Part shown: piece by piece, positions 9,583 to 17,864 of the stretch | Layout of the letters: each line of letters opens with the position of its first letter | Position numbering within the stretch: position 1 is the first letter of the stretch | Source: a virus | IMG/VR virus record: IMGVR_UViG_3300037104_000756 | Location: 1-64,000 of that record | Length of the DNA stretch: 64,000 nucleotides | Strand: one strand, 5' to 3' | Made by a program: the position numbers and the translations under genes | The notes under the pieces: generated by a model | What the model was told of the DNA's origin: nothing | Database searches by the model: none | What the model saw: the letters and a program-made list of their open reading frames with translations, nothing else

Positions 9583-10014
9583 ATGATCCACCCTGATAGA
9601 AGGTTTGGACCTCATCCAGAACGAGGTCTCGCAATCAGCCTAGCGAAAAAAGGATTGGCGCAGATTAAAGGACGTATTCACCCTGACCGTGTTCTTACGG
9701 GTGCAGAAAAGAACGCGCGTCATCGTGCAAAACATCCTCGCACTGTCGAATTTCGGCGCGAAGAGCATGCAAACTATCAACGTGCATTCATCGCTGCCAA
9801 AACGCAACAGTATGAGAAACAAAAAGGTCTGTGTACCCTATGTCATACATCTTTGCCAGAATTGGAAAAATGTCACTGGGATCATGACCACAACACTGGC
9901 AAAATGCGAGACGTTTTGCATCGACGATGCAACATTGCTTTAGGTTATATTGAAGATGAACTTTACCCCCTAGCTCTTGATTATTTGGAGATGCACACCC
10001 ATGACGCCGATTAA
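9583..10014 (+). CDS. Endonuclease VII-like homing endonuclease
   Basis: QKGLCTLC…DHDHNTGKMRDVLHRRCNIALG. Confidence 0.85.
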   Translation: MIHPDRRFGPHPERGLAISLAKKGLAQIKGRIHPDRVLTGAEKNARHRAKHPRTVEFRREEHANYQRAFIAAKTQQYEKQKGLCTLCHTSLPELEKCHWDHDHNTGKMRDVLHRRCNIALGYIEDELYPLALDYLEMHTHDAD

Positions 10015-10624
10015 CCCGACCCCCGAAAAAACCCTTCTTGGGTGGTTGATTCGGCATGGGGAACTGGTCAATATGTCAGTATGGGATGGCTGGGGGTTAT
10101 TCGACCTCAGTGAAGAGGGTCGCCAACAAGCCGAAAAAGCCGCGCAGTGGCTATCTTTCGAAAAGATTGGGCGCGTCGTATCGTCAGACGTACCTCGTAC
10201 CCTGCACACCGCACAATACCTCATGGACACTGGGTGGGTCTGCTGCCCATTTATGGCGTGCGACCCGAACATCCGACCGTGGAATGTATCCGAAGAATTT
10301 ACGGGCAAGGAGAAGACTCCCGAGCGCCTTGCCGCGTTCAAAAAATATCTGGACGACCCTGATTTGGTCATCCCGGGCGGCGAGAGTCGCAACCAACTTC
10401 ACGACCGCGTGCAGGTAATATTCCAATATTTGTGCGCGCCGTATAATGCGCTGCCTACTGCTTGCTTCATTCACAATTCCGTGATAAAATCCCTGATGGG
10501 GCTGGACGACGTGAAACAAGCGGTTATGCCCGGGGGCATCGTCGGCGTTTATATGGACGAAAAAGGTGAGATTGATTTTGAAGTACTGCTGGGTCACGTT
10601 GAACCTGAGATTGGAGTTTCCTAA
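10001..10624 (+). CDS. Histidine phosphatase superfamily protein
   Basis: LIRHG catalytic motif, SSDVPRTLHTA, PGGES, C-terminal His (FIHNSVIK). Confidence 0.85.
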   Translation: MTPINPTPEKTLLGWLIRHGELVNMSVWDGWGLFDLSEEGRQQAEKAAQWLSFEKIGRVVSSDVPRTLHTAQYLMDTGWVCCPFMACDPNIRPWNVSEEFTGKEKTPERLAAFKKYLDDPDLVIPGGESRNQLHDRVQVIFQYLCAPYNALPTACFIHNSVIKSLMGLDDVKQAVMPGGIVGVYMDEKGEIDFEVLLGHVEPEIGVS

Positions 10625-11205: not shown

Positions 11206-14200
11206 GTGGCAGAAGATACCCCAGTTACTCCAGCGGCACCTCCGATACCGGACTCGATTCCGATTACGGACCCAACTGTGTCTGCATCAATTCCAATTGA
11301 CCCAGACACCGCTGCGATCTACGACCCCGCCAAAGACAAGAGGGCTCCATTCCTCAAGGTGAATCTGCATCCAACGGGACCGACTATTGAGGAAGCACAT
11401 AAACCTTTACTGCAGCGAGCCAAAGAAGCCATCACGGAGAATATTCCTAACTATTCGTCCCGAACTGTCTACGATCCCAAGTACGGTAAAGAATCTTTTC
11501 TCCCCGATTCAGATGTTATGACGAGCCAGGAGCGGCGCGAACATCCCGTCGTTGCAGGGGCGCTCGATGCCGCTAGTGGTTTGGCAACTCCCGCCACGCT
11601 CGCGACCGTTGCGGCGACTGCAGGAGTAGGCGAAGCGGGACTCATTCCCAAAGTGTTGTCGGGTCTTTTCGCAGGTCAAATTGCTGTAGGAGTGTACGAC
11701 CAGTATCCTGCATTAAAAGCGGCGGTAGATAAAGCCCAGCACGCAAAGACGACGCAAGAACATGACGACGCGTTTGCCGAAGCGCAACAACTATTGACGC
11801 ACATGGGCGCGGATACCGTTATGGGTTTGTTGGCTGCGAAGCACGGCGCGGAAGGCGCGAAAGAGATTTTGGACTCGACTACGGGCAGCGGCGTGCCCGA
11901 CCAAGCATCAACGTTTAAGGCTCCGCAAGGACCTGCGGCTCCCGAACCTGAAGAGACACACCCCGAAATGAATCGGGATACGGTTAAGTCGCTCCAGAAG
12001 TTAGGATACTCCAACCAACACATTACCAATTTCAATATCTCCGAAATCCGCGACATTCTGAAAAATAATACTCCTGCGGTTGATCATCCCGTATCCAAAC
12101 CCGCTGGTCCCGACCCTGATGCATTTGCTGCGTCTGGCGGTAAGTTGGTGGGTCCGACTCCGACAAAAGCGGCATCCGCCGCTGCCGCGCCAGAAGCAAA
12201 AATTACCACCGACAGTAATGGAACTAAATGGGCTGAGAACGAGAACGGCGTCCGTGTTTCTATTCCGCAGCGCATCCCTGAAGCGCAAGTCCAAGAGTAC
12301 GCCGCTACACAACTTGATTCACAAGCTAAGATGCAGGCGGACGCCAAGGCGAAAGTCGCGAACGCAGCGGACCCCATCGAAGACCTTCTCATGTCCGACA
12401 AGATTCAAGGCAAGAAAGTTCGCGGTGCAACTCCAAAACCTACCGAGATTCCTGCGCAGCAAGGGCGACGGGCGGGAGTGGGAGGCGTTAACCGCACACT
12501 TCCTGAAGACAGTAGTTTTGCCTTCAGGGCGAGAAGCACGGACAAACTCCCCTATGACAGCACCAGCAATGGCGGGGATATGGGGCGCGGCGGTAAAGCG
12601 TGGCTCAATACCGATGGGACTTTTGACCCTCAAGATGAAGTCCATAAGAATGGGCTTGAAAATCTTGCCAAAGGAAATATCCGAATCGGAAATTTAGAGC
12701 GTGACGGGAGTGTTCTCTTCCATGCAAATGACGTTCCTACCGAAGCGCAACGTGCGGCAATCGGAAAAGACATCGCCAAGCAGGGAGTGATTTACGATTT
12801 GACCAATAAGAGCGGTGAGCGCATTTCGGGTGAGACAGATAAACCAGGAGAATTCTGGCGCGCTGTCGATAAATTTTATGGCGTTGGACCCCAGCCCGAC
12901 GCCTTCGCATCATCGGGCGGCAAGTTTGTAGGAAAAACGCCTGAGCCAGCCGCACCCGCTGTCACTTATCATCCAGATTTGCAAAAAGTCATAGACCTTC
13001 CAGGTGTGACGGTTCACCAAAACGCATCGCAGGTTACTGGCGCAGCACATTTCGTGACACCCGATGGGAAATTCGTGCGCTTGCCTAGAGGGCTAGGGCA
13101 TCCTGAAGCTGTCGCAAAAGCGGTCGGTGGGGCTGCGTACGACCCTGATAATCGTGTTCGATTTCTAAATGACACAGGTGCGCTGCGTATTCGTCCCTCG
13201 ACAGGGAAGGCGGGAGAAACATTGCATGTTTCAGTTCCTGCAGGTGGCGTGACGCCTGAACAAGTGGACGCACTACAGCGATCCGTGCAGGCTATGGGTA
13301 AAAACGGCAATCTGGTTTTGGAACGCGCAGATATCAACGCCGAAAACAAAGACACCGCCAGCACCACTATCGAGCAGGTGAAACCATATCAAGTAGAAGA
13401 CGCGTTGAAAAAAATCGGAGCGCATCCAGAACAAGCGGGTCTTGTCACCAGTGAACTGCAAACTCCACATAAAGAAACATACGAAATGGAAATCACAGAT
13501 CGCGTAGGCGACACCAATACGGACGGGGAGGTTCATACCGAAAAAATTGACGCGCACTCCCCCAAGCAAGCGATAGCTCTTGCGCAAAAGAAATTCCCAG
13601 ATGCACATCAATGGCGCTTGGCTACCATGCCTGAAGAGAAGGCACTGTCAACTGAATATTCCGTCCCGACGAAGAACCTCGCCACAATGCCTGCATCCGC
13701 AGACCGCCCTGTGGTTCACACTATCCGCCACGAACTTGGACATGCCTTGGTCGGACAGAATGAAGGCATGGGCGTGAAAGCGATGATTAGCTCGACTCAC
13801 CCTAAAGGCGGGAGGAACATGCGGGCGGCGGTTGATTGGGACGCGACGGGTGTGTTTAATTTTAATGGACACCCATACCCCGAAAAAATTCCCATGCTTG
13901 TTCGCACATTCATGGGTGGCATAGCTGCAGATGAAGTTTTCAATGATCTGCCGCGCAGCACCAATCACAATTTCAACATCGCGACTCGCGGTTCGGATGG
14001 TCAACGGGCGTATAGCTTTCTGCGGGCGGAAGGCGTCAGTCACGAACAGGCGTTTGATTATATGCACCAAGCGATAGAAGACGGGAAAGCGTATTTGGCA
14101 AAGCCTGAAGTTTCTGATATCATCAAAGAGAACGCGAATGTTCGAGAAGCAGGGCTGTCTCGGCAGTACCACTACAGTCCCGAAAGATTGCAAAATATGC

Positions 14201-17200
14201 ATGCGGAAGCTCAAAGGAGAATTCAAAATGGAGCCGAACAGCCTAACAACGGAGCAATTAATGGACAAGCTGCTGGAGGACGCGAAACAGCAGACACCCG
14301 AGGAGAAAGCGGAAGTGCGCAAGGCACTGGCGAAGGCGTTCCCGCAGAAGAAGGTATAGTCTCGGAAGAAAAATCCAGAAGCCCCCAAAAACCTGCAAAA
14401 TTAAAACAAAACCCACCTGTAGGGTATATCACCCCGGCAGGGAAATTTGATCCATTCCAGAAGGGCGAGACCTCCCACATGGAAGCCGCCCATCGTTTGA
14501 TGGGCTATGGCGATCCTCAAAAATCCCTTGATGTTGACGCCTTCGATGAGGTACTAAAGGCGGGGTATGTGCGTAAAGCCGGACAAGGGTCCTATGATAT
14601 TCGTGGAGAACTGAATCCACAAACCAAAGCAGCCCTTGAGCACGATATTCTCTTAGATTCCCGCGATCTTAAAACGGGAGGTAAATATAAGCATCCCGCC
14701 AATATCGTCATCGAAAATGACGATGATGGTTACGAATTTTCAGTAGACGACTTCATCGACAAGTACAACGGCAGTCTTGATAAGGCGATGAACGCCGAGC
14801 GCACATTGACTACGGCTGAAGTCAAGAAACCTGCAGCCATGACGCCTAAGATTGCGCAGCAGATTGTTGATGCGCACACTGCCAACGGTGGCTCTACCTT
14901 CAACCTTCACCAAGGCGACTTAGCAGGCACTGATAACTACGCGGTAGCGGCACATCCCGAACGCGGAGAAGTTTTGGATCATCAGCCGACCACCAAAGAT
15001 ATTCAAGCGTTTGCCAAAAAGAACGCAGACCTGTTGAAGGACCCAGAAAAGAGTATCGGCACTTGGCACGACACCTCGAACGATACGCACGCGCTCGATG
15101 TCGTCGCGACGATGCCCGACCGCGAGAAAGCTATCGCGCTAGGAAAAGCGAACGACCAAAAAGCTATCTTCGGCTTGAAAAACAACGAAGAAATCAACAC
15201 AGGTGGAACTGGCGCAGTGCCTGTCGGCGGTACCGCCGCCGCGCCCGCAGCACCAGCCGCGCCGCCCGAGAGCGCCGATATTCCGACAGTCAGCACCCGC
15301 GTACCTTCGCGCAAAGTCAAGGGTGTAGATGTCGAAGACCACACCAATCAGGCGCTCACATCTGACATGGACGCTGCTAAAGCCGCGCCTGGGTACATGC
15401 AGAAGATGGTGGATAAGATCATTGCTACTCCAGGTTTCAAGGCTCCCGAGGGAGGCGACGCGCAAGCGATTGCCGAAGCATATATTCGGCACGTTGCGGA
15501 CAATACGAAATTCGTGTTCAACAAATTGAAGCCCGAGAACGTCAAGAAAGACGAGCAGTGGTATCCTGTTGGCGCGCATCAGCGCGGTCTCGAAGTCGCG
15601 AAGCAGCATGGATACACTCCCGCGCAAATATTCGGCGTCACGTCAGTGGAATCTCCCATGACCGACTGGGATGCAAATACCGCGATGGCGGAACGCACTG
15701 CCAGCATCTGGAAGAACCAACAGAAGACCAAATTCACTCCTGAAATGCGTCAAGCGGCGGATGATATTCTCACTGTGCCCGCCATGGGGAAATTTAAAAC
15801 ACTCTTCAAGGGTTTAGAGGGAAAGACGCTGGCTGAACTCCCAAACATCGAAGATAAGGCATGGTGGCTGCGGCTATATGACGAGGGACACAACCCACGC
15901 TCATATCAGACCTGGAATCCTGACGGGACCTCGGGAGGATTCGCGAAAAACATCGATGGGGTGACCAATAAAAACCTCGGATGGAGTTTCCAGAACCACA
16001 TTCAAAAAGCGATCTCCATTCTACAGGACGGATCGCCCGAGAACATTAGCGCGAGTTTGGGCTATGGACACAAGGTTCGCAACTTCTATAATAACCAACT
16101 CGCGCCAGATGACCCGCGATATTTGACCATCGACACCCACGCGGTTAACATTGCGCAGTTGCGCCCGATGTCAGGAAAGAATCCTGGCGTCACATCAAAT
16201 TTCGGCACGATCAGTAATGGACCGCACGGATTAAGCGGTGTTTACCCTTTGCACGATGCTGGGTATCGATTGGCTGCAAAAGAGCTTGGCATTTCAATCC
16301 CGAGTAGACTACAATCACCTACATGGGTAGAAATTCGCAATGTCTTTACGGACGATTTCAAAACGAAGGAAAATCTTGCATCGATAGATGCAATATGGAA
16401 GGAACATTCCGATGGAAAAATCACAGCCGACGACGCCCGCAACAAAATCTGGGACTTCGCAGAGCGATGGAACCGTGAAAATACTGGAAAGACTGGGAGT
16501 ACCAGTGACCAGGGAAAACTATTTGATGCTGGCGTTCGCGGGACATCCACCAAAGGAACTGGATCAGGAAATCGAGGAGCAACTCCCGCGCCAGTTTCGA
16601 AACCAGAAGTAGACGAGGGCGACACCTCATTTGACTTCGGGGCGAATGAACCAGAGCGCATCGCGCCCGCGCGTGTAAAATCCAACGTTCCGAAGATGAC
16701 AGGAGAGGGTTTAATTAAAGCGCTCCATGGTCTTAATAAACCCAGTGGGAAAATTCCAACAAAGTTTCGTCAAAACCTCAATGCCGCCGAAAGCATGAGT
16801 GATCCAGATACGCGGTTCAATACCGCGCAGCATGAAGCAGGACATGTAGTGATTAGCGAGATGTTGCGCCCCGGGGCTGTTCAGGGTGTTGGGTTGGATG
16901 ACTCGGGAGGATACACCAACATAGCGCCGCCAGCGGGGAAAACAGAAGCCAGTCAGCTTTCTCCAGAGGAAATCCGAAATCTCGTCGCGGTGAGTTACGC
17001 GGGCGGGATGGTAGAGCCAGGAGGAACCACCGCCAAGCATGTCGGACCAGATCAAGCGCGACGGGCAGACATATTAGGGGGTGGCGCGGTATCGACGATG
17101 TCTAATATTGGTCGTTTGATAACGGGTCATACTCTTGGTACTGACCAAATGCTACAGGCGAATCAACAACAGGCTGAAGCAAAGGCGCGCGTGACCGCAC

Positions 17201-17310
17201 TGCTTGCCGACCCTGCTGTTCGCCAGAACATCAATACCTTGGCAACGCACATCACAACGAGGGGGCATCTCTCAGGCGACGAAATCCGTAGCGTGCTAAA
17301 GAAGCCTTGA
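11206..17310 (+). CDS. Giant polyvalent (probably virion-packaged) multidomain protein
   Basis: 2034 aa; two M41/FtsH-like zincin domains (HELGH at 13729, HEAGH at 16831), an HhH-GPD glycosylase-like domain (GHKVRNF…TIDTH), three copies of a [YFW]-h-x-P/T-D/A-G-x-F…H…G-x-h-R module, and low-complexity linkers. Confidence 0.85.
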   Translation: MAEDTPVTPAAPPIPDSIPITDPTVSASIPIDPDTAAIYDPAKDKRAPFLKVNLHPTGPTIEEAHKPLLQRAKEAITENIPNYSSRTVYDPKYGKESFLPDSDVMTSQERREHPVVAGALDAASGLATPATLATVAATAGVGEAGLIPKVLSGLFAGQIAVGVYDQYPALKAAVDKAQHAKTTQEHDDAFAEAQQLLTHMGADTVMGLLAAKHGAEGAKEILDSTTGSGVPDQASTFKAPQGPAAPEPEETHPEMNRDTVKSLQKLGYSNQHITNFNISEIRDILKNNTPAVDHPVSKPAGPDPDAFAASGGKLVGPTPTKAASAAAAPEAKITTDSNGTKWAENENGVRVSIPQRIPEAQVQEYAATQLDSQAKMQADAKAKVANAADPIEDLLMSDKIQGKKVRGATPKPTEIPAQQGRRAGVGGVNRTLPEDSSFAFRARSTDKLPYDSTSNGGDMGRGGKAWLNTDGTFDPQDEVHKNGLENLAKGNIRIGNLERDGSVLFHANDVPTEAQRAAIGKDIAKQGVIYDLTNKSGERISGETDKPGEFWRAVDKFYGVGPQPDAFASSGGKFVGKTPEPAAPAVTYHPDLQKVIDLPGVTVHQNASQVTGAAHFVTPDGKFVRLPRGLGHPEAVAKAVGGAAYDPDNRVRFLNDTGALRIRPSTGKAGETLHVSVPAGGVTPEQVDALQRSVQAMGKNGNLVLERADINAENKDTASTTIEQVKPYQVEDALKKIGAHPEQAGLVTSELQTPHKETYEMEITDRVGDTNTDGEVHTEKIDAHSPKQAIALAQKKFPDAHQWRLATMPEEKALSTEYSVPTKNLATMPASADRPVVHTIRHELGHALVGQNEGMGVKAMISSTHPKGGRNMRAAVDWDATGVFNFNGHPYPEKIPMLVRTFMGGIAADEVFNDLPRSTNHNFNIATRGSDGQRAYSFLRAEGVSHEQAFDYMHQAIEDGKAYLAKPEVSDIIKENANVREAGLSRQYHYSPERLQNMHAEAQRRIQNGAEQPNNGAINGQAAGGRETADTRGESGSAQGTGEGVPAEEGIVSEEKSRSPQKPAKLKQNPPVGYITPAGKFDPFQKGETSHMEAAHRLMGYGDPQKSLDVDAFDEVLKAGYVRKAGQGSYDIRGELNPQTKAALEHDILLDSRDLKTGGKYKHPANIVIENDDDGYEFSVDDFIDKYNGSLDKAMNAERTLTTAEVKKPAAMTPKIAQQIVDAHTANGGSTFNLHQGDLAGTDNYAVAAHPERGEVLDHQPTTKDIQAFAKKNADLLKDPEKSIGTWHDTSNDTHALDVVATMPDREKAIALGKANDQKAIFGLKNNEEINTGGTGAVPVGGTAAAPAAPAAPPESADIPTVSTRVPSRKVKGVDVEDHTNQALTSDMDAAKAAPGYMQKMVDKIIATPGFKAPEGGDAQAIAEAYIRHVADNTKFVFNKLKPENVKKDEQWYPVGAHQRGLEVAKQHGYTPAQIFGVTSVESPMTDWDANTAMAERTASIWKNQQKTKFTPEMRQAADDILTVPAMGKFKTLFKGLEGKTLAELPNIEDKAWWLRLYDEGHNPRSYQTWNPDGTSGGFAKNIDGVTNKNLGWSFQNHIQKAISILQDGSPENISASLGYGHKVRNFYNNQLAPDDPRYLTIDTHAVNIAQLRPMSGKNPGVTSNFGTISNGPHGLSGVYPLHDAGYRLAAKELGISIPSRLQSPTWVEIRNVFTDDFKTKENLASIDAIWKEHSDGKITADDARNKIWDFAERWNRENTGKTGSTSDQGKLFDAGVRGTSTKGTGSGNRGATPAPVSKPEVDEGDTSFDFGANEPERIAPARVKSNVPKMTGEGLIKALHGLNKPSGKIPTKFRQNLNAAESMSDPDTRFNTAQHEAGHVVISEMLRPGAVQGVGLDDSGGYTNIAPPAGKTEASQLSPEEIRNLVAVSYAGGMVEPGGTTAKHVGPDQARRADILGGGAVSTMSNIGRLITGHTLGTDQMLQANQQQAEAKARVTALLADPAVRQNINTLATHITTRGHLSGDEIRSVLKKP
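14228..14359 (+). CDS. Nested +1-frame small protein (43 aa) inside the giant gene
   Basis: SD AAAGGAG directly upstream of the ATG; helical sequence MEPNSLTTEQLMDKLLEDAKQQTPEEKAEVRKALAKAFPQKKV. Confidence 0.6.
   Translation: MEPNSLTTEQLMDKLLEDAKQQTPEEKAEVRKALAKAFPQKKV
16412..16612 (+). CDS. Nested +1-frame small protein (66 aa) inside the giant gene
   Basis: SD GGAAGGA before ATG; globular-looking core ILERLGVPVTRENYLMLAFAGHPPKELDQEIEEQLP. Confidence 0.65.
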   Translation: MEKSQPTTPATKSGTSQSDGTVKILERLGVPVTRENYLMLAFAGHPPKELDQEIEEQLPRQFRNQK

Positions 17311-17342: not shown

Positions 17343-17864
17343 ATGAGTGCCGTTAAACCCAAAGCTGCTCGCAAGCCAGTCACCGCCGAAGCTAAACTCA
17401 TCCTGCAAGACAAAAGACTTCAGAAGAAGTATGGCATTACTCTGGAAGAGCGCGACAAAAGGATTTACGAACAAGAAGGATTGTGTGCAATTTGCGGCGG
17501 CGCGCTCGACGCGTACGGACCCCCGAACGTGGATCACTTCCATTTCTTTGTCCAAGCCGTTCGCGAGACAGACCAACGGCTGCTGGCGCTGGGGTTGAAA
17601 TGGATTGCGATATCTTATGACGAGAGACGGAATTCGGTGTATTCCCGATACGCTAAAACCAAAGAGTCTGCTATCGCGAGTGTGAAAGACGCAACGAAAG
17701 CGTGGTCGGTGCGGGGCATTCTTTGCTTCAAATGTAATCGTGGCCTGGGCTCCATCGAGAAGTTTTTTAACGCCGCGCACCAACCTGGAAATCTCCTCCC
17801 TGTGATCGATTATTTACGGGCTCGATTAAAAACACTTGACAAACCGACAGACTTTAAACTATAG
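17343..17864 (+). CDS. Endonuclease VII-like homing endonuclease with internal insertion
   Basis: KKYGITLEE…QEGLCAICGG…VDHFH, about 55 extra residues, then VRGILCFKCNRGLG; promoter TTGACG-17-TACACT. Confidence 0.8.
   Translation: MSAVKPKAARKPVTAEAKLILQDKRLQKKYGITLEERDKRIYEQEGLCAICGGALDAYGPPNVDHFHFFVQAVRETDQRLLALGLKWIAISYDERRNSVYSRYAKTKESAIASVKDATKAWSVRGILCFKCNRGLGSIEKFFNAAHQPGNLLPVIDYLRARLKTLDKPTDFKL

Follow-up and report, generated by a model that had tools for sequence, protein, structure and literature searches.

How many proteins can a stretch of phage DNA encode when a single very long open reading frame (ORF) already runs through it? The question is raised by IMG/VR virus record IMGVR_UViG_3300037104_000756, a 98-kb viral contig of a peat-metagenome phage, of which the first 64 kb (hereafter the window) were analyzed. 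In this window a giant ORF of the polyvalent virion-protein type contains a DUF7178 domain, and directly behind that domain lies a second, hidden ORF in the +1 frame (Table 1). An earlier note, made from the sequence alone, had pointed to the motif GGAAGGA ahead of ATG 16412 in the +1 frame, had read the main frame at this place as a linker, and had proposed that the hidden product is a Ugi-like or immunity partner of a DNA-attacking domain. The motif and the ATG lie exactly at those coordinates, and the main frame over the hidden ORF is indeed a linker, rich in Gly, Ser, Thr, and Lys. What has to be settled is whether the hidden ORF is a gene, where its translation would start, and what its product would do beside DUF7178.

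Selection in the +1 Frame

The case for a gene is carried by frame-specific selection. In an alignment of seven related phages, the mean pairwise difference at main-frame codon positions 1, 2, and 3 is 0.19–0.23, 0.15–0.19, and 0.52–0.54 over the ~900 nucleotides (nt) upstream, and this pattern is inverted over the hidden ORF, with 0.42, 0.24, and 0.15 at 16481–16540 and 0.43, 0.34, and 0.21 at 16541–16609. Since each third codon position in the main frame serves as a second position in +1, the inverted variability points to a gene that is read in +1. When the whole giant gene was scanned in 403 segments, the third position was both least variable and low only at 16441–16620, and the few other segments that were flagged show no constraint at any of the three positions. 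The same switch, from 0.18, 0.14, and 0.52 to 0.38, 0.08, and 0.04 at the core motif of the hidden product (PVTRENYL), is displayed by 16 phages of a second, distant clade. Close relatives are 73% identical in the main frame and ~64% identical in the nested ORF, where the changes are conservative; the linker that the main frame encodes there is less conserved than the nested ORF. The hidden ORF is complete, lies in another frame of a longer gene on the same strand, and is under purifying selection of its own. These comparisons make it very probable that 16412–16612 is a coding gene.

Length by itself would not have singled this ORF out. From the upstream in-frame ATG at 16388 to the TAG stop at 16610–16612 the frame is open for 74 amino acids (aa), and the giant gene holds five +1-frame ORFs of at least 58 aa that begin with ATG (192, 74, 73, 66, and 58 aa), an ordinary length that would suit a chance open frame without a protein product. 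The length is within chance; the conservation is beyond it. Frame-specific purifying selection in two clades, a family of 1645 sequence clusters that includes free-standing homologs, and a confidently predicted core fold all speak against a chance frame, which we regard as extremely improbable and have rejected, since the comparative data on selection and family refute it for practical purposes. A sibling ORF of 43 aa (14213–14359) shows no alternative-frame selection, its positions differing by 0.46–0.52, 0.44–0.54, and 0.44–0.45 in the seven-phage alignment, as in unconstrained linker.

Translation Start

In 58 of 59 nonredundant viral loci an ATG is present upstream of the conserved core, in most of them ~16–40 codons before it, and most of these ATGs are preceded at 5–10 nt by a GAGG, GGAGG, or AAGG motif. 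Within the window's clade, ATG 16412 is found in all seven phages, and the Shine-Dalgarno (SD)–like GGAAGGA in five of the seven, with GGAG at the matching spacing in the other two; the 18 nt that follow the ATG are almost invariant. In two members of this clade other main-frame residues supply these elements, Trp-Arg giving the SD (GGAG) and Asn-Asp the ATG. In the second clade the SD and ATG are carved from the main-frame residues E-E-A-R-N/D, and all 16 phages use synonymous codons that keep both GAGG and ATG. Use of its own SD and of ATG 16412 by the hidden gene is accordingly what these patterns favor, and we consider it quite likely. Initiation at ATG 16388 is improbable, because no SD-like motif precedes this codon and because it is absent from two relatives (L009 and L015).

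One other route of expression has to be weighed. The small gene is offset by +1 in all nested and partly overlapping loci, as would also be expected if a programmed +1 ribosomal frameshift after DUF7178 produced a shorter protein ending in the small domain, and the contact predicted between the two domains (see below) would fit an intramolecular arrangement equally well. An own start is nevertheless favored by the conserved ATG and SD, a combination that is almost universal, and by six loci in which the small gene sits at a +2 offset with little or no overlap. A +1 frameshift could yield neither these six genes nor the free-standing ones; both the free-standing and the N-terminally fused forms begin at their own Met. 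Moreover, in two loci (L007 and L097) the +1 frame opens at the ATG itself, which leaves little or no room for a slip site, and no conserved slip site is visible. A weaker point is that no in-frame fusion of DUF7178 and the small domain was found among the loci or in a search of longer proteins. The frameshift is therefore very unlikely, and was rejected in favor of initiation within the giant gene.

The PVTRENYL Protein Family

A family profile built from three nested ORFs matches 96 gene-called proteins of 50–136 aa, which share the core GIPVTRENYL followed by an acidic E-x-E-x-x-L-P segment, so that the likeness of a G-x-P-x-TRENYL pattern to small phage proteins, suggested in the earlier note, is borne out. 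A full hidden Markov model search of 1.84 billion cluster representatives returned 1645 matches at E ≤ 1e-3, 275 of them at E ≤ 1e-10, and almost all of the best 150 are 56–200 aa long. T41, R42, E43, Y45, and E61 are invariant among 34 members; the ORF in the window aligns across the whole core and is 76% identical to a gene-called protein of 56 aa (P0030). By its sequence, the hidden ORF is a member of a conserved family of small proteins. No model for the small protein was found in Pfam or PHROGs, a tblastn search of GenBank phages with one member (P0038) gave no match, and a literature search found no paper that mentions DUF7178 and none that describes the nested gene.

The AlphaFold2 model of the small protein has three short helices in a core with a predicted local distance difference test score (pLDDT) of 85–92, preceded by 27 disordered N-terminal residues. 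A sequence search of the PDB with the small protein gave a single chance-level match, and fold searches of the PDB gave only ribosomal stalk proteins at Z 2.3–2.5; neither search matched Ugi, p56, or SAUGI. Among the predicted viral structures of BFVD, a 77-aa viral protein that is clearly a family member matches the model with a root-mean-square deviation (rmsd) of 0.9 over 46 columns. The family as a whole is acidic, with a median net charge of −5 and an isoelectric point (pI) of 4.4.

Several members have features of their own. A divergent small gene (K-Y-T-Q-E-N-Y-L; E 1.9e-6) occurs at L127:3235–3399 in the Rhodobacteraceae phage LS06-2018-MD07 (GenBank OP947163.1), where it is nested behind DUF7178 in a giant coding sequence labeled “methyltransferase” and is unannotated in the record. 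In free-standing members (L088:6010–6240 and L095; P0061, P0116, P0102, and P0147) the short motif D-L-x-F-L-R-x-x-G-I is often found on one side or the other of the core, in one to three copies, and some of these members have two tandem cores. In L095 an apparent frameshift lies inside a copy, the core being split across two frames.

Linkage to DUF7178 and Overprinting of an Older Gene

When loci were collected with the peptide profile, a DUF7178-like domain (~306 aa) was found directly upstream in 79 of 80 viral loci, and in 78 of those it belongs to an ORF on the same strand; the remaining locus of the 80 is cut off at its 5′ end. In one locus (L022:5962–6144) the DUF7178-like gene and the small ORF are convergent, on opposite strands, and the small ORF has a GTG start only. 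For the reverse direction, the 80 loci most similar to the domain were taken from 542 relatives, a sample that is biased toward relatives of the window's domain, and in 74 of the 78 with enough downstream sequence the peptide is directly downstream. Thus, in phage genomes the small gene almost always follows directly after DUF7178, from whichever side the search is begun, and the link to a glycosylase-like domain on which the proposal of the earlier note depended is present. In the window, the conserved core begins at 16466, shortly after the end of the domain at 16440.

The junction between the two takes several forms. Among the domain-selected loci, the small gene is fully nested at +1 in 57, the main ORF ends inside the small core, again at +1, in 12, and the two genes are separate or barely overlapping at +2 in 6. 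In two contigs of metagenome-assembled genomes (MAGs; L097 and L098) two large ORFs, both in one frame, flank the small gene. Because relatives keep separate, overlapping, nested, and fused arrangements side by side, the order of events can be read from them. The small gene would be the older reading, still an ordinary separate gene after the DUF7178 gene in some phages; in most phages the upstream gene would have lost its stop and would now run on across the small gene, reading it as a linker in a different frame; and in the phage of the window this linker would extend to a downstream peptidase module. Collectively, comparison of the loci indicates a real embedded gene, the overprinting of an older small gene, and tight synteny with DUF7178.

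The DUF7178 ORF of at least 12 divergent phages (the L058 group) ends exactly 38 nt past the stop of the small gene, in a semiconserved G-R-x-A-P-x-x-G-A tail. The gene for an internal virion protein begins right at the DUF7178 stop in L058, and likely does so in the others. The fixed spacing of 38 nt together with the adjoining next gene suggests translational coupling of all three genes.

The DUF7178 Domain

The claim in the earlier note that the upstream domain is glycosylase-like agrees with what was found: the giant protein has a single Pfam match, DUF7178 (PF23802), and the model of this domain resembles HhH-GPD DNA glycosylases. In VIA-align, the top 22 matches to the model consist entirely of HhH-GPD DNA glycosylases and the related queuine salvage enzyme; the highest-scoring one is Tm1821 Ogg (Z 9.7, rmsd 3.9, 175 residues aligned), with AGOG, EndoIII, Mag1, OGG1, and MutY at Z 5–7. 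Like the EndoIII- and Ogg-type enzymes, the modeled domain is all-helical and two-lobed and contains a helix-hairpin-helix, and its G-x-G-H-K hairpin and I-D-T-H segment align with the Lys and Asp motifs of Nth (E 0.14). In contrast to those enzymes, DUF7178 has no significant sequence similarity to them, is ~100 aa longer, has an inserted β-hairpin and no iron-sulfur cluster motif, and sits inside virion proteins. Searches of PDB sequences with the DUF7178 profile gave no match, and Foldseek on the PDB with the model gave only weak rows (best E 0.42). The invariant K184 and D204 of the domain are possible counterparts of the catalytic Lys and Asp of EndoIII. The model thus gives fair support to a glycosylase-like fold with plausible catalytic residues.

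A Predicted Complex of the Small Protein with DUF7178

In complex prediction, the small protein and DUF7178 scored 0.82 in three runs, the best of three controls scoring 0.00. The runs agree in at least 96% of contacts, with a partner pLDDT of at least 82. As a rough guide only, because the counts transfer imperfectly to the alignments used here, 58 of 80 solved complexes attain the 0.82 mark, as do 2 of 110 mismatched pairs. The predicted contacts on the domain include residues 45–46, 82–94, 108–111, 117, 154–158, and 181–182, among which P45, R117, and W154 are invariant and 181–182 form the hairpin of the helix-hairpin-helix. Binding of the small protein to DUF7178 is therefore rather likely on the evidence of the model. 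Of the proposal that the hidden protein is a Ugi-like or immunity partner of a DNA-attacking domain, the partnership is supported by this model, whereas the likeness to Ugi is not: the protein has three short helices, matches no known inhibitor fold, and in the window carries a net charge of only −1.

Possible Roles of the Small Protein

The account that seems to us the best overall, though it falls somewhat short of an even chance, is that of an embedded gene with its own start whose product binds and masks DUF7178. According to this account, the hidden gene would be translated from its own SD and ATG inside the giant virion-protein gene into a protein of ~66 aa whose first 20 residues are disordered and whose three-helix core is acidic. 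The product would act in trans, as a partner of the DUF7178 encoded just upstream, and would sit on the face of the domain that bears the helix-hairpin-helix hairpin and invariant residues. It may thereby mask or regulate DUF7178 as an immunity-type partner, such that the domain would be kept silent until ejection, both inside the cell that produces the phage and inside the DNA-filled capsid. A masking or immunity role fits the order of effector and then partner gene, the acidity of the family, the predicted contact with the hairpin, and the presence of orphan copies in phyla that are likely hosts. Those orphans that lie beside an integrase, in Acidobacteriota without DUF7178, would be consistent with orphan immunity. 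Masking in preference to docking, the alternative considered next, is held tentatively.

Under the docking or assembly alternative, the small domain would plug proteins onto the DUF7178 of an internal virion protein (of the ejected core): as an N-terminal domain it would recruit cargo or effectors into the virion, and the free form of 56–70 aa would be a structural subunit or cap. This alternative draws on large proteins (P0232, P0233, and P0235–P0237) in which the small domain occupies the extreme N terminus and LigT/ART or Zeta-toxin-type kinase domains are also present. It is also consistent with locus L057, where the main frame past the nested ORF shows homology to residues 113–738 of P0233 (39% identity, 5e-133), so that the same three modules (DUF7178, the small domain, and a downstream module) are joined in different frames in different phages. 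In L058, furthermore, the DUF7178 gene lies between the genes for a tail tubular protein and an internal virion protein, and the complex model supports binding under this alternative as well. The N-terminal fusions and the internal-virion setting fit a docking module at least as well as an inhibitor. Docking leaves the free forms without cargo, such as that in the window, without an obvious reason, however, and gives the bacterial copies that lack DUF7178 nothing to dock on; the link of the fused forms to DUF7178 is, moreover, inferred, as searches for the P0233 and P0236 loci returned only relatives without the small domain, or nothing. We judge docking possible, if somewhat unlikely.

The small protein may also be real but have another target, for instance a host factor, its position behind DUF7178 reflecting inheritance as a block and translational coupling. 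Eleven bacterial MAG loci, mostly of Acidobacteriota, hold free-standing copies in clusters of small genes. No large ORF overlaps these copies, DUF7178 is absent within 6 kb of them, and one of them lies 3 kb from an integrase. A search of four such MAGs with the domain profile, which recovered the window's own record at 1.9e-118, found no match anywhere in them, although these genomes may be incomplete, and a comparison of neighbors among the free-standing loci found no conserved adjacent partner gene. The D-L-x-F-L-R-x-x-G-I motifs of some members suggest other contacts, and the invariant T-R-E-x-Y residues lie mostly outside the predicted interface. What speaks against another target is a linkage of 95–99% that spans domains of ~35–40% identity and three kinds of junction, stronger than is usual for block inheritance, together with a complex model that passes its controls. 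This explanation seems to us unlikely.

Several of these observations weigh against masking too. Fusion of the small domain to the N terminus of large effector proteins would be a strange arrangement for an inhibitor; genomes without DUF7178 have free-standing copies, and some DUF7178 proteins have no small gene, as in Roseobacter phage CRP-738; and conserved residues of the core lie largely away from the modeled contact. The family is acidic, but the window's copy is only weakly so. The complex was predicted in one job, with unpaired alignments, from the domain and peptide residues 24–74. The glycosylase assignment of DUF7178 is by fold only, at a Z of 9.7 that is moderate for a helical protein, and the profile comparison that aligns K184 and D204 with the Lys and Asp motifs of the Nth protein is not significant.

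A bolder version of the masking account holds that the PVTRENYL protein naturally inhibits an HhH-GPD-type glycosylase, that its gene is carried in the linker of the virion effector which it silences, and that the bacterial orphans confer immunity against the ejected effector of incoming phages. We know of no earlier natural protein inhibitor of an HhH-GPD-type glycosylase, and regard this version as doubtful.

Genomic Setting of the Giant ORF

All large ORFs of the window are on the plus strand, an SU10-type portal among them. A histidine phosphatase gene (9977–10624) lies just 5′ of the giant ORF, and a gene with an endonuclease VII domain (17343–17864; 4e-12) directly 3′ of it. Besides its position in L058 given above, the DUF7178 gene follows the portal in Roseobacter phage CRP-738, and these positions suggest that the DUF7178 protein is packaged and ejected. 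The giant protein has two copies of a 13-residue motif, P-D-A-F-A-x-S-G-G-K-x-V-G, at aa 304 (12115–12153) and aa 564 (12895–12933), and comparable junction motifs (H-P-R...G-G-Q-F) lie between the modules of the fused relatives P0232 and P0235 and of L057; motifs of both types may be linker or processing sites. Among public DNA runs, near-identical DNA was found in peat and permafrost metagenomes. No RNA run was listed as a match among the public sequencing runs searched for the phage DNA, and a nucleotide search of the region against GenBank phages gave no match.

Table 1. Positions in the window of the giant ORF, the DUF7178 domain, and the elements of the hidden gene
Feature	Position	Strand	Remarks
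Giant ORF, 2034 aa, polyvalent virion-type; hosts the hidden gene	11206–17310	+	HExxH at aa 842 and 1876; DUF7178
DUF7178, HhH-GPD glycosylase-like domain, giant-protein aa 1440–1745	15523–16440	+	Pfam PF23802, 2.4e-18; AlphaFold2 pLDDT 90.6
Invariant Lys 1623 (domain K184), motif GHKVRNF	16072–16074	+	Domain alignment
Invariant Asp 1643 (domain D204), motif IDTH	16132–16134	+	Domain alignment
Possible 8-codon N-terminal extension from in-frame ATG 16388	16388–16411	+	No SD-like motif; ATG missing in L009 and L015
SD-like GGAAGGA	16397–16403	+	8-nt spacer to ATG 16412–16414; main-frame codons Trp-Lys-Glu
Putative hidden gene, 66 codons plus TAG	16412–16612	+	+1 frame relative to the giant ORF; start kept in 7/7 close relatives
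Main-frame linker overprinting the small gene	16441–16612	+	Low complexity; constrained only to stay open
Predicted folded core, residues 27–70 counted from ATG 16388	16466–16597	+	Three short helices; invariant T-R-E-x-Y of the PVTRENYL motif

Comparison with Known Systems and Implications

Genes embedded in other genes are familiar from phages, as in the case of lambda Rz1 inside Rz and phiX174 E inside D, and Rz1 binds Rz, the product of the gene that contains it. The hidden gene appears to be like both examples in being complete, in the +1 frame of a longer gene on the same strand, and in having its own SD and start, and it is like Rz1 in the predicted binding of its product to that of the surrounding gene. 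By analogy, an embedded phage gene whose product binds that of its containing gene, as with Rz1 in Rz, would be the closest known kind. Unlike Rz1 and Rz, however, the hidden gene is unrelated in protein and function, with no lipoprotein box and no lysis context, and here the small gene would be the older one and the surrounding linker the overprint, with separate, partly overlapping, nested, and fused forms all found among relatives.

Ugi of PBS1/2, p56 of phi29, and SAUGI inhibit the family-1 uracil-DNA glycosylases of the host. The hidden protein resembles these inhibitors in being small and phage-encoded, in belonging to a family of low pI, and in its predicted position on the glycosylase-like face with the DNA-binding hairpin, whereas its putative partner differs, being an HhH-GPD-like domain of the phage's own virion protein. 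In toxin-immunity pairs, the gene for an enzyme-like effector is followed by that for a small partner. The pairs of polymorphic toxins and polyvalent proteins are matched here by an enzyme-like domain in a very large phage protein with a small partner gene at once behind it, and by orphan partner copies in bacterial genomes; in contrast to such pairs, the partner gene is overprinted inside the ORF of the effector itself, and the toxicity of the effector is putative. The text on polyvalent proteins by Iyer et al. 2017 (PMC5512222) does not contain the words “glycosylase,” “overlapping,” or “frameshift,” and uses “HhH” once, in another context.

Because gene callers skip nested genes, a family of this size is largely invisible in phage annotation, and the “methyltransferase” coding sequence of LS06-2018-MD07 is an example of a nested copy that was missed. 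The locus also offers an unusually clean case of overprinting for a tailed phage, in which an older small gene would have come to lie within the linker of a growing giant protein. Furthermore, an uncharacterized virion domain, DUF7178, gains a candidate partner and with it a direct handle on its role. If this partner does inhibit the domain, it would add a new kind to the known glycosylase inhibitors, with uses comparable to those of Ugi.

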